This document shows positions 17,974-40,733 of a stretch of 41,137 nt of DNA, piece after piece; the first letter of the stretch is position 1; each line of letters opens with the position of its first letter. Source of the stretch: Candidatus Adlerbacteria bacterium (GTDB taxonomy: Bacteria; Patescibacteriota; Minisyncoccia; Phycocordibacterales; SBAW01); assembly GCA_026397405.1 (NCBI GenBank), contig JAPLUW010000001.1, positions 1 to 41,137 on the forward strand, given 5' to 3'. Both the position numbers and the translations under genes were made by a program. The notes below the pieces were generated by a model. It did no database searches. It was not told the DNA's origin and saw nothing but the letters and a program-made list of their open reading frames with translations.

Positions 17974-18453
17974 ATGCATACTAAAAAACTTATTTTGGCT
18001 ATTGTTCTCTTTTTTGTCATTATCATCGGACTTGCAGTACTTGCATTTGTCCCTTCGCACAATGCACACGCCCCAACGGGGAATACCCAAGCCACAACTA
18101 CCCCTACTACCGCAACAGAACCTGCGCACCTCGCCGACCTTATTGTAGTAACGTCGCCACTTCCCCACGCAACAGTTACATCGCCACTTGTGGTAACGGG
18201 CCAAGCTCGCGGCAATTGGTATTTTGAAGCCAGCGCGCCGGTTGAACTGCGTAACGCCGCGGGTGCCGTTATTGCACAGGGCCATGTAGAAGCACAGGGC
18301 GACTGGATGACCACCGAATATGTGCCCTTCACTGCAATACTTACGTTTCCTGCCCAAGCACCAGGGTCTGTCGGCATGTTAGTACTCAAAAACGACAACC
18401 CATCGGGCGACCCAGCACGCGAAAAAGAATTGGATATTCCGGTCCATTTTTAA
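17974..18453 (+). CDS. Secreted/anchored Gmad2 immunoglobulin-like domain protein
   Basis: 159 aa with an N-terminal TM/signal anchor, a Thr/Pro linker, then VTSPLPHATVTSPLVVTGQARGNWYFEASAPVELRNAAGAVIAQG...VPFTAILTF. Confidence 0.65.
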   Translation: MHTKKLILAIVLFFVIIIGLAVLAFVPSHNAHAPTGNTQATTTPTTATEPAHLADLIVVTSPLPHATVTSPLVVTGQARGNWYFEASAPVELRNAAGAVIAQGHVEAQGDWMTTEYVPFTAILTFPAQAPGSVGMLVLKNDNPSGDPAREKELDIPVHF

Positions 18454-19474
18454 TTCTTTTGCTCAGTTTATAGGCATTCCCATGCTTCAACATCCCCAGG
18501 TACGACTGCACCGTCGGGCTATCCTCTTCTAAGCCATACGTCCGTTTCAACATCCGCCGTTTTGTAGTAGTACGTAAAACTCTGTAATCTGGGAAATGCA
18601 CCCAGCCCAAAAAATCGACACCAGATGCAACAGTTTCTATAGAAACTTTATTTGGATGCAGTTGGAGGCGTAATTTGTTCCATAAAAAATCTTTAACTTT
18701 CAATAATATAGTTTCGAGATATTTTTTGTCGCGAGAAAGAAATACAAAATCATCCGCGTAGCGGATATAATATTTCACCTTAAGTTTATGCTTTATAAAC
18801 TGGTCGAACTCGTTCATGTAAATGTTTACCAACAGCTGGGAAGTTAGGTTGCCAAGCGGGAGTCCGACTTCAAGGTTCGACCTTGAAGTAAAGCTGGAAA
18901 TAACCGTTTTTAAGAGCCTAAGAATGTCTTGGTCGGAAATATATTTCTCGAGTATTGAAAATAGAATGGTGTGGTCAATGTTTGCGAAGAACTTTTTGAT
19001 GTCGCACTTCAACACCCATACCGTTTTGCTGTGATTGCGTGAACCTTTTCTCGCATATGCGAAAAAATGACACATTGCGCGATGAGTACCCCTTCTTACC
19101 CGAGAAGAATGCGAATCATAAATAAATTTTTTGTCGAAGAATGGATACAAAATTCTATGTATCGCATGATGCAGGAGTCTGTCACGTACAGATGCCTTGT
19201 GGATATCGCGGGGTTTTGGATCACTGATACGGAAATGATAATACGCGCCATGACGGTACGTTTTATTTTTCAAATCCCGGTGGAGTGCCATGACTTGATA
19301 TATCAAGCCATGCTGAAATTCCAGCACATCTTCTTTGTTGCGTTTGCCGTTTAAAAATTCTTTCCATGCAAGAAGCAAATTTTCGACGGAAATGATATCT
19401 TCATAGGTATGAGTAAAAACCGCTTTGAAACGAACCCCCCCCCAACAGATCTTGCCTATCTTGGAGTATATCAA
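18386..19474 (-). CDS. DGR-type reverse transcriptase
   Basis: 362 aa. It has the RT motifs KCDIKKFFANIDH, GLPLGNLTSQLLVNIYMNEFD (the DGR-typical [LI]GxxxSQ) and YIRYADDFVFL (YxDD). It lies adjacent to the TR/VR pair. Confidence 0.92.
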   Translation of the reverse strand: MIYSKIGKICWGGVRFKAVFTHTYEDIISVENLLLAWKEFLNGKRNKEDVLEFQHGLIYQVMALHRDLKNKTYRHGAYYHFRISDPKPRDIHKASVRDRLLHHAIHRILYPFFDKKFIYDSHSSRVRRGTHRAMCHFFAYARKGSRNHSKTVWVLKCDIKKFFANIDHTILFSILEKYISDQDILRLLKTVISSFTSRSNLEVGLPLGNLTSQLLVNIYMNEFDQFIKHKLKVKYYIRYADDFVFLSRDKKYLETILLKVKDFLWNKLRLQLHPNKVSIETVASGVDFLGWVHFPDYRVLRTTTKRRMLKRTYGLEEDSPTVQSYLGMLKHGNAYKLSKRIKNGPEYPILFRVLGRPMGCRF

Positions 19475-19832
19475 ACAGTCCTATCTGCTCTGGCATGAAT
19501 ATTATTCTACACTCCCAAAAGTCCATCGTTATACCGTCGGGGAGAAAATAGACACCCTTTTTATTGAAATAATAGAAGCCACATCAAGTGCGGCATTTCT
19601 CCCGCGTGGTGAAAAAACACCGTGGGTGCGCCTTGCCATACGCAAACTCGATACATTGAAGCTCCTATTAATGATACTTTGGGAAAGCAGTTCTCTTTCG
19701 GATAAAAAATACATCGCTCTTTCTGTAAAAATAGATGCGGTGGGAAAAATGTTCGGCGGATGGAACAGCCAAATCCTTCGACAAGCTCAAGACAAGCAAA
19801 ACTCCTCCGAGAAAAAGTCGGAGGAGAAATGA
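19425..19832 (+). CDS. avd: Avd-like four-helix-bundle protein (accessory variability determinant / 23S-IVS protein family)
   Basis: ILPILEYIKQSYLLWHEYYSTLPKVHRYTVGEKIDTLFIEIIE...KLDTLKLLLMILWE...KKYIALSVKIDAVGKMFGGW matches the four-helix-bundle family pattern. The start is TTG 19425, with alternatives TTG 19452 or 19461. Confidence 0.8.
   Translation: MKRTPPQQILPILEYIKQSYLLWHEYYSTLPKVHRYTVGEKIDTLFIEIIEATSSAAFLPRGEKTPWVRLAIRKLDTLKLLLMILWESSSLSDKKYIALSVKIDAVGKMFGGWNSQILRQAQDKQNSSEKKSEEK
19435..19443. repeat. C9 (plus) / G9 (minus) homopolymer inside the overlapping 5' ends of RT and avd
   Basis: Read directly as cgaaCCCCCCCCCaacag. It spans RT codons 11-14 (TGT TGG GGG GGG GTT) and avd codons 4-7 if avd starts at TTG 19425. 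Confidence 0.9.
19802..19826 (-). other. Perfect 9-bp stem-loop immediately 3' of TR on the minus strand
   Basis: On the minus strand, CTCCTCCGA-ctttttc-TCGGAGGAG is followed by TTTTGCTTG. It lies inside the last codons of avd on the plus strand. Confidence 0.5.
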
Positions 19833-19838
19833 AGAGAG

Positions 19839-19966
19839 TTGCGGGAACGAGGAACGCCGAGGCGCCATTGTCATTCCACTTGTTGCCGGGCTTGTCCCAA
19901 TACGTGTTGACCCAACTCCCGTCATCGTTACGGTTCGAGTTGAGGACGTTCGGGTTGCCGTCGGAA
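19839..19966 (-). repeat. DGR template repeat (TR)
   Basis: Gap-free 128-nt alignment with 20293..20420. All 17 differences fall at plus-strand T in this copy, which is A on the minus strand. Confidence 0.9.
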
Positions 19967-20200
19967 ACGTGCGCGACATCATCTCTATCACCATCCATCG
20001 AGTACTCTCTGGATTGAATCGCATTCGGCATCACAATGCCCCAAAGCCGCGCACCAAGTATCTTCAATTTTTGAAGTGTCTACATATGTCACACTATTCC
20101 AAACGCAGTTCGTCAGGAACACTCTGGACACATGGATACTGGCCTCGGCAGCGGGCAATCCAGTGTCGCCCGCGTATTCGCCTACTGCCACTTTCATTGT

Positions 20201-20239
20201 AACAAAGAAAAATCCGCCGCCCCAAAGCCGGGGCGGCGG
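20201..20239 (-). terminator. GC-rich hairpin plus U tract 45 nt downstream of the target-gene stop
   Basis: On the minus strand, CCGCCGCCCC-ggcttt-GGGGCGGCGG (10 bp, all GC) is followed by ATTTTTCTTTGTT. Confidence 0.6.
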
Positions 20240-20284
20240 AAACAAAGGTCATAGCGTCTAAGTACAAGAGCTGGAGGCCGACGC

Positions 20285-20986
20285 CTAAGCGCTTGCGGGA
20301 ACGAGGAACGCCGAGGCGCCATTGCCACCCCACTTGCAGCCGGGCTTGACCCAAGACGAGTCGACCCAACTCCCGTCAACGCCACGGTCCGAGATGAGGA
20401 CGCGCGGGTTGCCGCCGGAATCCTGGATGGTGTCGTAGAGCGCTACGATATACCAGAAGCCCATCTTCTCCATCTGCTTATCGGAGACCGACTCGCGGAT
20501 GCGTGGGATGACGCCCGCCAGCGGCTTGCCGTAGCCGTACTTCTCCGTGCCGAGCTTCTGCAAGGCCTCCGTGGTACGGTCGGCGTCGCGCTTTATTTCC
20601 TTGTGGGGAACCAGCGCGATTTTGTACTTCTGCCCGGCGACAAGGCGATGCTTGGCGTCATAGCTGTCGGGCTTCGTACTGGTGAGGCAGGACTTGGCGT
20701 AGTCACCGACGCGATACTTCGCGCCGAGGAGCCGTTCCACTTCTTGCCCACCCGTGAGGTCGAGCCCTTTGATGGTGAGCACGATGTGACCGTGCTCGTT
20801 GCGTTCGAAGACGGGCGGCGGAAGCGTCGGGCAACCAGCCTGCAGGAAGGCGGCGAGATTGTCGCGTGCCTTCTTGTCGTTGACCGGCAGCATGAGCTGT
20901 TCGGCATTGATGCCGACCTTATTCATGACACGGAAAAATTTAGCGGCCGCGTCGAGATTGTCACTGAGGGTTGCGATGTCGAGCAT
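20285..20986 (-). CDS. DGR target (variable) protein with an unrecognised N-terminal domain and a C-terminal variable region
   Basis: 233 aa. GGAGG lies 6 nt upstream of the ATG. The C-terminus ...DSGGNPRVLISDRGVDGSWVDSSWVKPGCKWGGNGASAFLVPASA is encoded by the VR. No N-terminal hydrophobic signal is visible. Confidence 0.85.
   Translation of the reverse strand: MLDIATLSDNLDAAAKFFRVMNKVGINAEQLMLPVNDKKARDNLAAFLQAGCPTLPPPVFERNEHGHIVLTIKGLDLTGGQEVERLLGAKYRVGDYAKSCLTSTKPDSYDAKHRLVAGQKYKIALVPHKEIKRDADRTTEALQKLGTEKYGYGKPLAGVIPRIRESVSDKQMEKMGFWYIVALYDTIQDSGGNPRVLISDRGVDGSWVDSSWVKPGCKWGGNGASAFLVPASA
20293..20420 (-). repeat. DGR variable repeat (VR)
   Basis: It occupies the last ~42 codons of the target ORF and ends 2 codons before the stop. 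See TR. Confidence 0.9.
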
Positions 20987-21276
20987 CGGATGCCTCCAAT
21001 TATTGTTGAAATGAGCTGTCCTGAGGCCATATATACGGTCCCATCAGCCATCATAAATTATACATGTAATTGGAGTTTCGTCAAGTTTTGTCGTCGCCAT
21101 ACCTTAAAACTATTTTTAATTTTCCAGTGGGACAAAACTTTCATTTTTAGGCAAAAATGAGGGGTAAAAAATGACTAATCTACAGCTTTTTTAGAGAAGT
21201 TGCGATTTGTGTGTTGCTTTTTATCAAAAAAGTTCTCGGATTTGCTATTCACAGCATAATTTAATGAAAAAAGGAG

Positions 21277-33881: not shown

Positions 33882-36800
33882 TTACGCGACTTCTTCTTTT
33901 TTAACTATCGGTGCTGCTTGCTCGCCGGTGCCTGGTGCGTAGCGGTTGACCAATTTTTCTTTTGGAGAACCCTTAAACCCGGTACCTGCAGGAATGAGCC
34001 GACCGATGATAACGTTTTCCTTCAAGCCTTCAAGTTTGTCGACGCTACCGTACATCGACGCTTTGATAAGCATGCGCGTGGTGTTTTGGAACGATGCCGC
34101 AGAGAGGAAGCTCTGGCGTGACAACGAGACATCCAAAATACCCATGACAAGCGGCTCGCCTTTTGCCTCATCGCCACCTGCCTCTGTAGCTACTACGTTT
34201 GCAGCATTCAAGTCGCTTTCGTTTGCAACATCACCCACAGAGAGTTCTGTTCCACCCGAACTTGTAACACGCAAACGGCTAAACATCTGACGGATAATTG
34301 TTTCCAAGTGCTTGATAGAAATGCTTGCACCCTGGAGTTCGTAGATTTTTACAATTTCGCTAATGATGTACTCTTGCGCGCGCTCCTTGCCTGCGTATTT
34401 GAAGAGCTCCGAAAGGTCGGCCGAACCGTCGGTCAACAACTGACCCTTGGTAACCGGGTCGCCAACTTTGACAGTCGGTACGCGGCGTACGTGTGCCGAG
34501 TATTCGATAAACTCTTTTTTGCTCTTCGTGCGGTACTCGAGGTCTGGAGCCACCACAATAACTTTTTCTTTTTGGTCGTTTCTAATTTCAGTAACATGAC
34601 CCGACACTGTTGCAACAACGGCTGGGTTGCGAGGCATGCGGCGTTCGAAGATTTCTTCAACACGAGGCAAACCTTGTGTGATGTCGCCACCAACACTTGC
34701 TGCACCTCCGGCGTGTTTTGTGTTCATCGTCAGCTGCGTACCTGGCTCGCCGATTGCTTGTGCGGCAACGGTACCTACAGCTTCGCCGAGTGCGACAGGC
34801 TTGTCAGTTGCCAAGTCTGCGCCATAACAGTGGACGCACAAACCGCGGACAGACTTACATGCAACTGGCGAGCGTACGTAGACCGACGGCACTCCGAGCT
34901 CTTCCAAGTGGCGCGCATCTGTTGTTGTAAGGAAGTGGCCCTTTTTGTAGAGCACTTTACCGTCGTGTTCAATGTCTGCAGCTGCATAGCGGCCCTTGGT
35001 GTTTGTTGCCAAGAATGTGCCGATGCCCGATGCCGACTCGCGTTTAATAGTGAGACCTTCTTTGGTACCGCATTCGTCTTCAACAATCACAACGTCCTGT
35101 GCGACGTCAAAGAGGCGGCGCGTAAGGTACCCGGCTTTTGCTGTGGAAAGTGCAGTAGACGCCAAGCCCGAACGTGAACCGTGCGTGGTGATGAAGTATT
35201 CAAGCGGCGAAAGACCTTCTTTCATCGACTTAGTAATTGGGAACTCGAGCGCGTCACCCATAGGGCTGGCGATAAGACCTTTCATACCGGCCATCTGCGT
35301 TACTTGTGCAATAGAACCGCGGGCACCCGAGTGAAGCATGTCAGAGACTGAGCCGTTGACGGCAAGAGTGCTTGGCATAAGTTTTTCAACTTCTGACTTT
35401 GCCGCGTGCCATATTTCGATGTTCATGCGGTAACGCTCTTCTTCCGACAGCAAACCTTCCTGCCAGTGCTTCATAATCTCGCCCGACTTCCCTTCTGCAC
35501 GTGCGACAATTTCATCTTTTTCAACTGGGACACGGATGTCGTCGAGCGACCAGGTGATACCCGACTGTGTGACATAACGGAAGCCGAAGTTCTTAATGCG
35601 GTCCATTATTTCGGGGATCCTTTCAAGGCCGTAGCGGGCAATAAGGTCGTCGACCAATTTTGCCAAGCTCTTCTTGTGAATTGGCGCGTTGATGAACGGG
35701 TAGTCAGTTGGGAAGACGGTGTTGAAGAGCAAACGTCCAACGGTAGTTTCAAACAACTGGCCACCGAACGCTGCATATTTTTCTTTTTCAGACGGCATAA
35801 CTTTAACCTTTGCCTGGAAGCCTACGTGGCCGTAGTCGTATGCCAAGATTGCCGCGTTGGGTGTTGGGAATGCAAGCCCTTCGCCTTTCATACCTTCTAC
35901 TTCTTTTGTCATCCAGTAGGTACCGAGCACAATGTCGAGGAGTTTAAGTGCCACCACAGGCTCGCCGTTACCAGGTTTCAAGATGTTTTTAGATGCGGAC
36001 ATAATCTCGCGTGCTTCTGCCTGCGCTTCAGGGCTAAGCGGCACGTGGACTGCCATCTGGTCGCCGTCGAAGTCTGCGTTAAATGCAGCACAGACAAGCG
36101 GGTGCAACTGGATAGCGTTACCTTCGATAAGAATAGGCTGGAAGGCCTGGATACCAAGGCGGTGCAATGTCGGTGCGCGGTTCAACAGTACGTACTTGTC
36201 GCGGATGATATCTTCGAGAATTGCCCAGACTTCTGGAACACCTTCGTCGATAAGGCGACCTGCACCACGGATGTTGAACGCCAATTCTTTTTCAAGCAGT
36301 TTACCAATGACGAACGGACGGAAGAGTTCCAGCGCCATGTGTTTTGGCAGACCGCATTGGTTGAGTTTAAGTTCTGGACCCACAACGATAACTGAACGGC
36401 CCGAGTAGTCGACGCGCTTGCCGAGCAAGTTCTGACGGAAGAGACCGTGTTTACCCTTCAAGTTGTCAGACAACGACTTAAGCGGACGGGTGCGAGCCTG
36501 TGTGGTTGCGCTAAATGCAGCACCACCGTGACGGATAGAGTTGTCTATGAGTGCGTCAATTGCTTCCTGCAAGATGCGCTTTTCGTTGCGCAGAATCACG
36601 TCTGGCGCATGGATTTCGATAAGCTTCTTCAGGCGGTTGTTGCGGTTGATAACGCGGCGGTAGAGGTCGTTAACGTCCGACGTTGCGTGGCGGCCGCCGT
36701 CCAAGGCAACCATAGGGCGTAGACCTGGTGGGATAACCGGGATGCGTGTGAGGAACATCCATTCTGGGCGAACTCCAGACTTGATCATGCCGCGGAGCAC

Positions 36801-39800
36801 CGAGAGACGCTTGCCGAGTTTTTCGCGTTCTGCTGCGCCACACTTAACAAGTGCTGCTTCGGTTTGCGCAACCATCTCCTTCAAGTTCAAGTTTTTGCAG
36901 AGGTTGTAAATTGCCTCGGCACCGATGCCTGCTTCAAACATTGCACCGTACTTAATAGCGTAGCGGTGATATTTTGGCTCGTCCAAAACTGAACCGACAA
37001 AGATATTGTCGATGTCGTGCTTTGCCTCCAAGAACAATTCTTTCATTTTGTCCTTCGACTTTTCGTCCTGGAGGTTTTTAACCTTCATTTTATATTCTGC
37101 TTCGAGCTCAGAAATGATGCGCTCTTTTTCAGACTTATGGACCTGGCTCACAATGTAGCCTGCAAAGTAGACAACTTTTTCAAGTTCACCACCGCTAATA
37201 CCAAGCACCATTGCCAAGCGTGACGGAATTGCGCGGAGGAACCAGACGTGTGCGACCGGCACTGCCAAGTCGACATGGCCCATACGTTCGCGGCGGACAA
37301 TTGCGCGTGTAATTTCCACACCGCACTTTTCGCAGACAATACCTTTGTAACGGATACCGCGGTATTTACCGCAATAACATTCGTAGTCTTTTTCAGGACC
37401 AAAGATCTTTTCGTCAAAGAGTGAGTTTTTCTCTGGGCGCTGGGTGCGGTAGTTGATAGTTTCTGGCTTGGTAACTTCACCATGTGACCATTCCAAGATT
37501 TTTTCAGGTGATGCTGGGCGGATGCGTACTGCGTCGAAGTCAGCGACTTCGGCACCTGGAGTTTTGCGTGCATTTGTAAGAGCAGAACCGCTGCGCATCA
37601 GTTCGACATCGAGCGCCAACCCACGAAGTGTGTGGAGGAGCACGTTAAACGACGCCGGTGCGTAGTGGTGGGAAATGCGTTCGCCGCGGACGATAGAGTC
37701 AAAGGCAGCTGAGCGGCCCATGATGTCGTCGGACTTAATAGTGAGCATCTCGCGGAGCGTGTATGCCGCGCCGTAACCAAGGAGTGCCCACACTTCCATT
37801 TCTCCAAAGCGTTGGCCGCCTCCCTGAGCTTTGCCGCCGAGTGGCTGCTGGGTGATAAGAGAGTACGGTCCGATAGAGCGCATGTGGATCTTGTCTTCTA
37901 CCATGTGGTGAAGTTTCAAGATGTACATGTACCCAACGGCAATGTCCTGCTCGTACGCCTCGCCGGTGCGGCCGTCGTAGAGTTTTATTTTTCCGTTTTC
38001 GTTAAAGCCAGCTTTTTTAAGTTCCTGGCGGATTTCAACTTCTGTTGCACCTGCAAACGGTGGGCAGATTGCCTGGTAGTTAAGTGTGTTTGCAGCAAGC
38101 CCCAAGTGGAGTTCCAATATCTGCCCCAAGTTCATACGGCTTGGCACACCGAGCGGTGTCAAAATGACGTCAACTGGGCGACCGTCTGCCATGTATGGCA
38201 TGTCTTCTTCAGGCAAGATGCGCGAAATAACACCCTTGTTACCGTGGCGGCCTGCGAGTTTGTCGCCGACAGACACTGTGCGGAGCTGTGCAATTTCAAT
38301 ATGGATGCGCTTAATGATGCCGGACTCCAAGTGGTGCCCTGCTTCGCGTGAGAATACTTTGACGCTAATGATACGGCCGCGTTTGCCGTTTTCCATGCGG
38401 AGCGAGCTGTCTTTAACATCGCGAGCTTTGTCGCCGAAGATAGAACGCAAAAGGCGTTCTTCTGGTGTGAGCTGAGTTTCCCCTTTTGGAGTAATTTTAC
38501 CAACAAGGATGTCGCCTGGGCGAACTTCGGAACCAGTGCGGATAATACCGTCTTCGTCCAAGTTGCGGAGTTTTGTTTCAGAAACGTTCGGGATGTCGTG
38601 GGTTGTTTCTTCGGGTCCAAGTTTTGTGTCACGTACGTTGCAGACGAACTCTTCAATATGTACCGACGAGAACTTACCATCTTTTACGAGACGCTCAGAA
38701 ATGATAATTGCGTCTTCGTAGTTGGCCCCCGACCAGCACATAAACGCAACGAGCGCGTTCTGTCCAAGTGCGAGCTGGCCGTCTGCGGAGCTTGAAGTGT
38801 CTGCAAGCAAATCACCTTTCTTTACTTTTGTTCCAACAGAAACTGCCGGGCGACCATGCAACATGGTAAAGCCGTTGGTGCGGACAAAGTTAACAAGTGG
38901 ATACTCGAGGTCTTTACCTTTTGCATTTTTAACAATGATGCGCTTGCCGTCTGCTTGCACCACGACACCTTCTTCTTTTGCAACAATAAGGCGGCCGGTG
39001 TCACGCGCAGCGCGTTCCTCCATACCGGTTGCGACAAGCGGTGCCTCGGGCAAGATAACAGGCGTTGCCTGCTTCTGCATGTTCGAACCCATGAGCGAGC
39101 GGTTTGCGTCGTCGTGTTCCAAGAACGGGATCATCGATGTCGCGATAGAAAATGGCTGTGCTGGGTCGACGTCGATGTAGTTAACTTCCTTTTTTGGTAC
39201 GCGGGTTGGGGCGCCGCTCAAGCGGACTTCAACCATATCTTCGGTGATTTGCCCGTTGTCTTCAACTTTTGTTGCACCGTGCGCGATTATTTGTTTTTCT
39301 TCCTCAGCTGCGTTTAAGAACACAACTTCGCCAGTCACCTTACCGTTTGCAACTTTTACATACGGTGTTTCGATCATACCGAACTCGTTGACGCGTGCGA
39401 ATGTTGAGAGACGCAAAATAAGGCCGATGTTGGGGCCTTCTGGTGTGTGGATCGGGCAGAGGCGGCCGTAGTGGGACGGATGCACGTCGCGGACCTCAAA
39501 GCCTGCGCGTTCGCGAGTTAGACCTCCCGGGCCAAGGGCTGAAAGTGTACGCAAGTGCTCGAGTTCTTCAAGCGCATTCGTTTGCTGCATGAACTGCGCA
39601 AGCTGGTTGGTGGTGAAAAATTCTTTAATACGTGCCTGCAGCGGGCGTGGGTTAACAAACTGCTGTGGCATCGTTGCGTCGGTGTCGATAGTCGACATGC
39701 GGTCCTGGATGTTGCGCTTCATGTGGGTCAAACCAACACGGAGGCGCTGCTGCAACATTTCGCCAACGTAGCGGACACGGCGGGAGCCAAGGTGGTCGAT

Positions 39801-40733
39801 GTTGTCTTCCATCGCTTCAGGATCGTTTTCGAGCGTCAACACATGGTCGAGCACCATCGCAACGTCTTCAAGCGACAAGGTTTTGCGGCCTAAGTCCTTT
39901 TCGTCGAGAGACTTGCCAAAGCGCTGGTTAAAGCGGTAGCGGCCAACACGGGAAAGGTCATAGCGTTCTTCGCTAAAAATAGAGTTGATATATTCGCGGG
40001 CGTTTGCAGCTGTTGCCAAGTCGCCGTCGCGGAGGCGCTTGTGGATTTCGACATAGGCGTCGTCTAAGTTTTTAGCAGGGTCTTTTTCGATAGAAAGTGC
40101 TGCCCATGTCTTACCATGTTCAGACTTAAAGAGTGCCTTAATGTCAGCGTCGGTGTGGGCACCAAGAACACGGAGCAGTGATGTTGCGGGGAATTTGCGC
40201 TTGCGGTCGATGCGGACCTGGAGCATGCCGTCGGCATCGGCCTCAATTTCTATCCATGCGCCGCGGGCTGGGATCACTTTGGCACCAAAGTGGCGCTTAC
40301 CCTTTACTTCGTCAGCGGTAAAAAACACGCCGTATGAGCGTGCGAGCTGTGGGACGATAACACGTTCAACTCCGTTGATAACGAAGGTACCGTGTTCGGT
40401 CATCACAGGAAAGTCCGCAAGGAAAATCTCCTGCTCTTTTTCTGTGCCCTGTGCTTTGTTCTTCAAACGGACAATTGCGCGGAGCGGGATGTCGAGCGAC
40501 ATCTTTTGTGCTTTTGCGTAATGCTCGTCGTACTTTGGCTCGCCGAGTTCGATTTTTACAAACTCCAGGTCAAACTTTTTGCCGGAGTAGTCTTTAATAG
40601 GTGTGAACTCTTTAAAAATTTCCTTCACTCCTTCTTTTAAAAGAAGGGAGAAAGAGTCGACTTGCGCCGCTACGAGGTTTGGAGTCTCGGTGCGGGGTGC
40701 GCGGAAGCGGCCGAAGAACTTTTGTTCACGCAT
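33882..40733 (-). CDS. rpoBC: Fused DNA-directed RNA polymerase beta-beta' subunit (single 2283-aa ORF)
   Basis: The beta module spans residues 1 to ~1048 and ends ...[22 protein letters not shown] ~17-aa linker ([16 protein letters not shown]) follows. The beta' module starts at [32 protein letters not shown], with the zinc site CYCGKY...CEKCG and NADFDGD. There is no stop or frameshift between the modules. Confidence 0.95.

Follow-up and report, generated by a model that had tools for sequence, protein, structure and literature searches.

Organization of the locus

The window analysed here, a 41,137-nt stretch of DNA from Candidatus Adlerbacteria bacterium (contig JAPLUW010000001.1), carries on its minus strand, in this order, a target gene for a variable protein with a variable repeat (VR) at its C-terminal end, a terminator, a putative promoter, an RNA leader, a template repeat (TR), a conserved 3′ box, a stem-loop with a U-run, the accessory variability determinant gene avd in reverse orientation, and a gene for reverse transcriptase (RT) (Table 1). 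Together they very probably constitute a complete chromosomal diversity-generating retroelement (DGR) of the type found in Patescibacteria, very small uncultured bacteria (candidate phyla radiation, CPR), with architecture B3. This assignment follows from the adenine-only differences between TR and VR, the DGR-type RT, the presence of Avd, the intactness of the parts, and the recurrence of the same pattern in relatives. The initial annotation of the window had already called a complete DGR, and every defining component is indeed present and intact.

Table 1. Coordinates of the cassette features in the window.
Feature	Position	Strand	Basis or remark
Target promoter-like site TTGACG-16-TATAAT, 11/12	21057..21084	-	consensus match only; 71 nt upstream of ATG at 20986
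Target (variable protein) gene, 233 aa	20285..20986	-	open reading frame (ORF); 238 homologs; AlphaFold2 model, pLDDT 87.3
VR	20293..20420	-	last ~42 codons of target; 17 differences from TR, all at TR adenines
Terminator-like hairpin (12-bp stem) and T-run ending the target gene	20213..20240	-	terminator scan; equivalent upstream of leader in related loci
Extended -10-like element TGTTACAAT, putative promoter of leader-TR RNA	20196..20204	-	conservation in related leaders
Structured RNA leader	19967..20192 (5′ end ~20192)	-	alignments, RNAalifold, covariation, nhmmer, covariance model; directly 5′ of TR
Leader P1	20189-20164 / 20160-20141	-	
Leader P2	20134-20111 / 20105-20083	-	
Leader helix-6 strand AAUUGAAGA	20069-20061	-	
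Leader invariant linker UACUUG	20060-20055	-	
Leader P3, 5′ strand	20054-20043	-	
Leader P3a hairpin	20040-20027	-	
Leader P3b hairpin	20014-19993	-	
Leader P3, 3′ strand	19980-19969	-	ends 2 nt before TR
TR	19839..19966	-	128 nt, 32 adenines; repeat search and re-alignment
Conserved 3′ box CTCTCTTCATTTCTC	19824..19838	-	directly after TR
Box segment UCUUCAUUU, helix-6 partner of leader strand 20069-20061	19835-19827	-	covariation, RNAalifold
9-bp stem-loop and U-run	19793..19826 (stem 19826-19802)	-	terminator-like (scan); UUUUG run
Run after stem-loop UUUUGCUUG	19801-19793	-	
avd, 135 aa	19425..19832	+	Pfam bAvd PF22296, NCBIfam NF033474 DivGenRetAVD
DGR RT, 362 aa, TTG start	18386..19474	-	Pfam RVT_1 E 5e-27; best PDB match bRT 8ub7

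Template and variable repeats

Scripted re-alignment of the minus strand set the TR (19966 to 19839) against the VR (20420 to 20293) over 128 nt without a gap, at a constant offset of 454, and every one of the 17 mismatches has A in the 19839-19966 copy. This bears out the initial annotation, which had reported the same pair with 17 mismatches confined to the 32 TR adenines. The substitutions from TR to VR comprise 10 A>G, 5 A>T and 2 A>C. With a TR composition of 32 A, 39 C, 35 G and 22 T, not a single difference falls on any of the 96 non-A positions, and the chance of all 17 mismatches landing on the 32 adenines among 128 positions is 9.2e-13 (hypergeometric). The pair was also reported by an independent repeat search, and the edges of similarity are sharp at either end, where 30 of the 43 flanking positions compared are mismatched. 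No further VR-like copies or targets were found on either strand of the window.

In the frame of the 233-aa ORF, nearly all TR adenines (31 of 32) occupy codon positions 1 or 2. The TR codons include 7 AAC, 2 AAT and 4 GAC, in keeping with the AAC/GAC-type codons first noted at the variable sites, and only the two AAG codons could be converted into stops by adenine mutation. VR and TR differ in 13 of 42 codons, each change being non-synonymous; the number of changed codons, the placement of the VR at the end of the ORF and the two peptide strings had all been read correctly at the outset.

TR and VR share their last 32 nt, which are rich in GC and poor in adenine, so that the putative initiation of mutagenic homing (IMH) sequence would be the same as its counterpart IMH*; directly after GCAA the flanks diverge. 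Located 6 nt past the VR and overlapping the stop codon is a 4-bp hairpin, AGGC-GTCG-GCCT (20286-20275), and inverted repeats of varying form follow the VR in relatives. In addition, YTTRG motifs (CTTAG, CTTGG, CTTTG) recur every ~7-16 nt after the VR on the minus strand (20245-20292), and such motifs together with short inverted repeats are also seen in the first ~60 nt after the VR of related loci; they may be candidate target-recognition elements.

Reverse transcriptase and Avd

RTs of the DGR clade carry the motif [I/L]GxxxSQ in place of QGxxxSP, together with YxDD. The 362-aa RT of the window has LGNLTSQ and YADD, as had been noticed from its translation. Its best solved relative in a PDB sequence search is the Bordetella phage DGR RT, bRT (8ub7, E 4.5e-45), with retron-type and group II intron RTs following at ~1e-19. 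It scores below the cutoffs of the NCBIfam group II, Drt, retron and Abi models, the highest-scoring of which, that of group II intron RTs, reaches 144.6 bits against a cutoff of 300, and no maturase/X or endonuclease domain accompanies it. The N-terminus MIxSK..GG is kept in relatives, which makes the TTG start plausible and rules out that the G8 run close to it (~19440) is a frameshift.

The avd gene lies on the plus strand, opposite to RT, TR and target. Its product matches Pfam bAvd PF22296 with E 4.2e-10 (40.5 bits, cutoff 40) and NCBIfam NF033474 DivGenRetAVD with E 4.6e-12 (46 bits, short of its cutoff of 80). The initial annotation had rightly listed an Avd-like gene; its opposite strand, and with it the known B3 arrangement, had gone unnoticed. 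Position and orientation of avd are constant across all related cassettes. The 5′ ends of RT and avd overlap divergently by 50 nt (19425-19474), likewise in relatives, so that the promoter of each must lie within the coding sequence of the other. At its 3′ end, RT overlaps a convergent Gmad2-domain gene (17974-18453, plus strand) by 68 nt (18386-18453).

A structured RNA leader upstream of the template

The novelty of the locus is the content of its 326-nt VR-TR spacer, which is made up of a terminator, an extended -10 element and a structured RNA leader of ~225 nt. When the spacers of 12 loci were aligned, the terminator hairpin and the -10-like element recurred, as did ~220 nt of non-coding sequence that is strongly conserved up to the TR; for this stretch RNAalifold predicted 55 pairs from the 12 sequences, of which 37 show compensatory changes. 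Among related leaders for which the upstream sequence is long enough, 47 of 47 contain TAnnnT and 35 of 47 the extended form TGnTAnnnT; TAnnnT ends ~4-7 nt before the first conserved leader base, and the target terminator precedes it in each case. A generic sigma-70 scan did not call the TGTTACAAT element of the window.

Of the 68 related loci in which avd is present and the upstream sequence long enough, nhmmer detected the leader in 62, with position and strand unchanged throughout. The majority of these loci have no homolog of the window's target; the leader is thus present irrespective of the target family and belongs to the RT/avd lineage.

In a 34-locus alignment of the leader and the 3′ flank, from which the TR interior had been removed, RNAalifold, unaided, paired leader GAAGA with box UCUUC in a long-range helix. 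The full structure comprises 64 pairs in 9 helices, with 95.2% of alignment cells paired, as compared with 39-49% in slid controls, in which the partners are displaced by 1-3 columns. Changes on both sides are seen in 52 of the 64 pairs, compensatory cells number 350 versus 41-73 in the slid controls, and none of 500 shuffles reached any of the observed pairing measures. Two of the helices coincide with the borders of the template: P3, with 12 bp, 10 of which show double changes, ends 2 nt before the TR, and helix 6, with 9 bp (90.8% paired, double changes in 7 of 9), starts 3 nt after it.

A covariance model of the leader core (R1, 107 positions) scored 105.8 bits on positions 19967-20072 of the window, the highest of all loci. 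The model likewise recognises the core in L097, L116 and L118, relatives whose RTs are 49-54% identical, but 40 distant phage DGR loci gave no match. Rfam 15 gave no family at the gathering threshold when searched with the whole window, and the matches around the TR at E<=10 were no more than terminator-like noise; RNAs of group II introns or retrons were not among the results. The leader/TR/box RNA is therefore a structured RNA absent from Rfam and supported by covariation. It is not a coding sequence, as its insertions, placed at hairpin tips, are not multiples of three and its variation is compensatory between paired columns. No description of the leader was found in the literature consulted on CPR and Bordetella DGRs; Paul et al. 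2017 (PMC5436926), which lies outside that coverage, may describe these flanks.

On the 3′ side of the TR, the stem-loop and U-run are located within the last avd codons on the other strand. In relatives a GC-rich stem after the box is kept while its sequence varies, often with a UUCG loop, and is followed by GAGUUUUG. The 9-bp stem-loop of the window occupies the site of the Avd-binding stem-loop in known DGR RNAs, and stem-loops of ~9 bp just 3′ of the TR occur in 207 of 278 DGRs (Handa et al., bioRxiv 10.1101/2023.10.23.563531). Judged from its sequence, the leader plus TR unit looks like an independent transcript of ~400 nt.

The target protein and its family

The target yielded no domain or family match in Pfam, NCBIfam, PADLOC, PDB sequence or PDB profile searches, and inspection by eye revealed no evident signal peptide, transmembrane or hydrophobic segment. 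Its detectable homologs, 238 in number, are mostly from Paceibacteria, Parcubacteria and other Patescibacteria, with a few proteobacterial and other records, the nearest being 75% identical. The family alignment displays a fixed scaffold, …VL.A.R…G.W..A.W..P…W…GAFAF.VPAS, whose residues are interspersed with hypervariable positions. The target belongs to a widespread and highly conserved family that is apparently cytoplasmic, and its role is probably ligand-binding.

AlphaFold2, run on a 119-sequence alignment, predicted a confident fold (pLDDT 87.3, pTM 0.72), with a helical N-terminal part and an alpha/beta body in which the VR forms the last three strands (194-200, 207-212 and 223-228). A C-type-lectin-like fold had been expected at the C-terminus, and this expectation was not borne out by the model: Foldseek retrieved nothing significant from 350,542 PDB chains (best E 2.1) or from BFVD (best E 0.11), and no DGR variable protein was among the 82 PDB matches listed. 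Overlaps of 35-45 residues with C-type lectins were seen below the threshold (3gpr_C, E 4.4; 3whd_C, E 6.5). The target may be a very divergent C-type lectin (CLec) variant, as Roux et al. (PMC8144416) anticipate for CPR targets.

The GC content of the target (0.61) stands out against that of the RT (0.41) in the window. In the related loci L001-L110, target GC is 57-62% in most and 48-52% in the three lowest-GC loci, always 4-22 points above that of the same locus's avd and RT (28-50%) and of the flanking DNA (35-58%). Possible causes are that the target has spread horizontally in recent times or that its composition is constrained. Close target homologs (52-62% identity; P0057, P0054, L002, L018, L019 and L031) were also found in non-CPR records, which include the 3.78-Mb genome of Methylocystis hirsuta and metagenome-assembled genomes (MAGs) of Methylococcales, Chitinophagaceae, Bdellovibrionales and Azotimanducaceae; in L019, the whole cassette is present. 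These occurrences represent either horizontal transfer out of CPR or binning contamination. One family member on a 206-kb JGI contig (P0007, 386 aa) is an annotation artefact that could mislead family alignments: its gene call runs from the VR through the spacer into the TR, giving a chimeric protein with both peptides.

Related cassettes and genomic context

Architecture B3, 'TR-(avd)-RT', is that of 90% of CPR DGRs and is hardly ever seen outside them (Wu et al. 2018, PMC5758913). Its core order is that of the window: TR (19966 to 19839, minus strand), avd (19425 to 19832, plus strand), RT (19474 to 18386, minus strand). The order target/VR, spacer, TR, reverse avd, RT is the same in every RT-retaining locus among 35 genome loci. 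Roux et al. 2021 (PMC8144416) delineated a CPR-restricted cellular 'DGR clade 2', with targets that typically lack a recognisable domain; by taxonomy and architecture, the RT of the window would be placed in this clade. Its relatives are 57-67% identical to it, and at least 591 were found in metagenome contigs, mostly from groundwater and sediment. Among 2.9 million viral contigs only 3 close RT relatives were detected, the rest showing <=38% identity.

Ten related cassettes from other genomes have TR/VR pairs of their own, with mismatches almost exclusively at adenines, among them 13 of 13 in L001, 16 of 16 in L002, 13 of 13 in L003, 19 of 20 in L004, 15 of 15 in L005, 22 of 22 in L008, 12 of 12 in L012, 21 of 21 in L019 and 17 of 18 in L022. 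The 4.8-kb L010 from a Patescibacteria MAG has two tandem leader+TR units and two VRs; one pair shows 18 of 18 mismatches at A, and the other 18 of 22, with an aberrant 3′ flank devoid of the box. In 35 leader-bearing loci, representing several target families, a VR copy of the sequence between leader and box lies on the same strand, 400-530 nt upstream, with 562 adenine versus 21 non-adenine TR/VR differences in these loci combined.

Six related cassettes yielded no leader with nhmmer (L005-7, L026, L045 and L097), of which L097 was recovered by the covariance model; a search with this model, filters off, found no leader elsewhere in L005, L045 or L026. L005, L006 and L007 are three ~3.6-kb cassette copies, 99.6-99.7% identical, from a single Adlerbacteria MAG (contigs CAVVLG010000003/5/6). 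They share a clean deletion of ~220 nt extending from the terminator to the last ~25 nt of the leader, with box and stem-loop kept, and their VRs are identical, with all 15 mismatches to the TR at adenines; the RT of L007 is split by an indel. These features are compatible with frozen, inactive copies, and prove nothing in this regard.

Many target homologs are orphans or lie beside decayed cassettes. Two orphan targets without RT are followed by only the 5′ half of a leader (L024, 6665-6776; L032, 6623-6720), and a third (L025, 6723-6923) by a C-terminal RT fragment, while L026 and L028 have a TR and VR of ~97% identity, with differences at bases other than A. Decay of the cassette that leaves behind a fixed target seems to be common.

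The neighbours of the cassette in the window encode large and small ribonucleotide reductase subunits, TruB, HisRS, DnaG, a fused rpoB-rpoC, a GT4 glycosyltransferase and an aldo-keto reductase. The fused gene (33882-40733, minus strand), which unites the beta and beta′ subunits of RNA polymerase, is a single 2283-aa ORF in which the complete set of RpoB domains precedes the complete set of RpoC domains. These housekeeping neighbours, along with the mere 3 close RT relatives among the viral contigs, rule out a prophage or mobile context.

Proposed mechanism and alternative explanations

The DGR is apparently in working order. By analogy with the Bordetella phage element, RT-Avd would bind the leader-TR RNA and reverse-transcribe the TR, misincorporating at random opposite its adenines. 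The resulting cDNA would take the place of the VR and so rewrite as many as 22 codons, which corresponds to about 5e17 possible peptides. The leader would supply the RNA functions that in the Bordetella element are located downstream of the TR. Specifically, helix 6, formed by leader AAUGAAGA with box UCUUCAUU, may serve as the template:primer duplex from which cDNA synthesis would start at the TR 3′ end, P3 may act as a stop duplex fixing the 5′ limit of the cDNA, and the stem-loop after the box is a predicted Avd-binding hairpin.

In the Bordetella ribonucleoprotein (RNP), the RNA elements follow each other as upstream stop-duplex strand, TR, Avd-binding stem-loop, primer strand Sp47-56 (priming at A56), 2 nt, stop-duplex strand Sp59-70, and further RT-binding elements (Handa et al., bioRxiv 10.1101/2023.10.23.563531). 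Here the order is P1, P2, helix-6 strand, 6 invariant nt, P3 5′ strand, P3a, P3b, P3 3′ strand, TR, box and stem-loop. On this reading the neighbour relations would be those of the Bordetella RNA, with the chain opened at another point, i.e. a circular permutation. We lean slightly towards such a functional assignment of the leader, helix 6, P3 and the stem-loop. Placement of the domain upstream of the template would also fit the fact that avd, antisense and directly behind the TR, occupies the DNA on the 3′ side. The survey of Handa et al. was limited to the 40 nt before and the 100 nt after each TR, and would therefore have missed an upstream domain.

Several observations weigh against the explanation of the locus as a whole. 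The role of the leader is read from its topology, the presumptive template strand of the primer duplex is situated just outside the TR here and inside it in Bordetella, and the linker is longer than that of the Bordetella RNA. Half of the six cassettes in which nhmmer found no leader, namely L005-7, still display adenine-only VR differences. The Avd scores are at or below the curated Pfam and NCBIfam cutoffs, and the fold of the target is not recognisably that of a C-type lectin in the Foldseek comparisons with PDB and BFVD, which can miss very divergent CLec variants. Finally, the case for current activity is built on sequence data: we found no pair of near-identical strains with different VRs, no near-identical sister contig and no pair with TR identity >92%, and the exact protein has no other record.

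One alternative is that the locus is a DGR whose leader takes no part in reverse transcription. The leader would instead be an ordinary 5′ untranslated region or stability element, a regulatory RNA (which might sense a signal, or control how far transcription reads through into RT and the antisense avd), or a site where a protein binds for homing. Such an explanation, which we deem rather unlikely but deserving of attention, could draw on the purely topological basis of the assigned role, on the leaderless L005-7 with their 15 adenine-only VR differences, and on the finding of Handa et al. (bioRxiv 10.1101/2023.10.23.563531) that in most DGRs the functional RNA elements are downstream of the TR. 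However, the leader accompanies the RT/avd lineage through a variety of target families, two of its helices terminate exactly where the TR begins and ends, and its strand order of duplex strand, short invariant linker and duplex strand matches the Sp47-56 / 2 nt / Sp59-70 arrangement in Bordetella; as to L005-7, a clean deletion accompanied by three identical VRs is what would be expected of frozen copies. An improbable alternative is that of a fossil, in which the parts look intact, diversification has ceased, and the VR differences date from past activity. In its favour, many related targets are orphans or adjoin decayed cassettes (L024, L032, L025, L026 and L028). Against it, both RT and avd ORFs are full length with catalytic motifs, non-adenine differences are entirely lacking, and the leader has the top covariance model score of all loci.

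It could also be argued that the locus is not a DGR, and that a partial gene duplication or pseudogene happens to lie beside an unrelated RT from a group II intron, a retron or a defence system, given that RVT_1 is a generic domain and that the best NCBIfam model is that of a group II intron RT. We regard this possibility as negligible: that match is far below its cutoff, maturase/X and endonuclease domains are absent, Rfam yielded no group II intron or retron RNA, the best PDB match is a DGR RT, Avd is present, and the adenine-only pattern has a probability of ~1e-12 and recurs in independent loci.

Taken as a DGR with a permuted RNA, the locus invites a broader proposal, which we make tentatively and with slightly less than even confidence. 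In a large Patescibacterial lineage, the RNA responsible for priming and termination would be a circular permutation of the Bordetella DGR RNA, in the form of a self-contained ~400-nt transcript with an RT/Avd-organising domain 5′ of the template; its cDNA would be cis-primed from the invariant UACUUG linker beside helix 6 and halted by P3, and it would represent a previously undescribed class of structured RNA. The DGR itself, as one more member of a well-catalogued class, changes little. What matters is that its leader/TR/box RNA is strongly covarying and lineage-wide, and marks both template boundaries. If it is indeed a permuted counterpart of the Bordetella spacer RNA, it would separate the topological necessities of the DGR RNP from accidents of gene order, and a compact, self-terminated template RNA might be useful for engineered DGR mutagenesis systems. 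The target family, with its confident unmatched fold and anomalously high GC in every host, bears on what CPR bacteria diversify and why.

Comparison with known systems

CPR DGRs with B3 architecture have been catalogued since 2017 (PMC5758913, PMC8144416), and the element in the window shares with them (B3 of PMC5758913; clade 2 of PMC8144416) gene order and orientation, a cellular, chromosomal location, occurrence in groundwater and sediment metagenomes, a target without a transmembrane segment or recognisable domain, a C-terminal VR and AAC-rich TR codons. We see no essential difference, and consider it a further member of this group. The C-type-lectin variable proteins Mtd, TvpA, AvpA and TaqVP resemble the target in that its VR is C-terminal, with an invariant Trp/Gly/Pro scaffold between the variable positions and predicted beta strands. 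Unlike them, the target has no sequence match to any solved structure and no PDB Foldseek match at E <2.

Comparison with the Bordetella phage BPP-1 DGR, organised as mtd-avd-TR-brt (Handa et al. 2018 and bioRxiv 10.1101/2023.10.23.563531), shows that the two have in common an RT homologous to bRT, an Avd and adenine-specific mutagenesis. Their genetic layout differs, as avd is here on the other strand, between TR and RT; the putative IMH and IMH* are identical here, and the target is not a phage tail-fibre protein and has no demonstrable C-type-lectin fold. At the level of RNA (avd segment/TR/Sp in BPP-1), both have a stem-loop directly 3′ of the template, for which Avd binding is predicted in our case, as well as one duplex strand just 5′ of the TR (the cPRT stop) and a second duplex at the template 3′ end, presumably with equivalent functions; the two non-template strands are adjacent and follow the same 5′ to 3′ order. 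In contrast to BPP-1, where the structured domain (Sp) lies downstream of the TR, it is upstream here (19967-20192), with only the box, one stem-loop and antisense avd downstream. The presumptive template strand of the primer duplex is the box, outside the TR, rather than a segment within it, the linker consists of 6 invariant nt (UACUUG) instead of 2, and the RNA seems to possess its own promoter and a terminator-like end.

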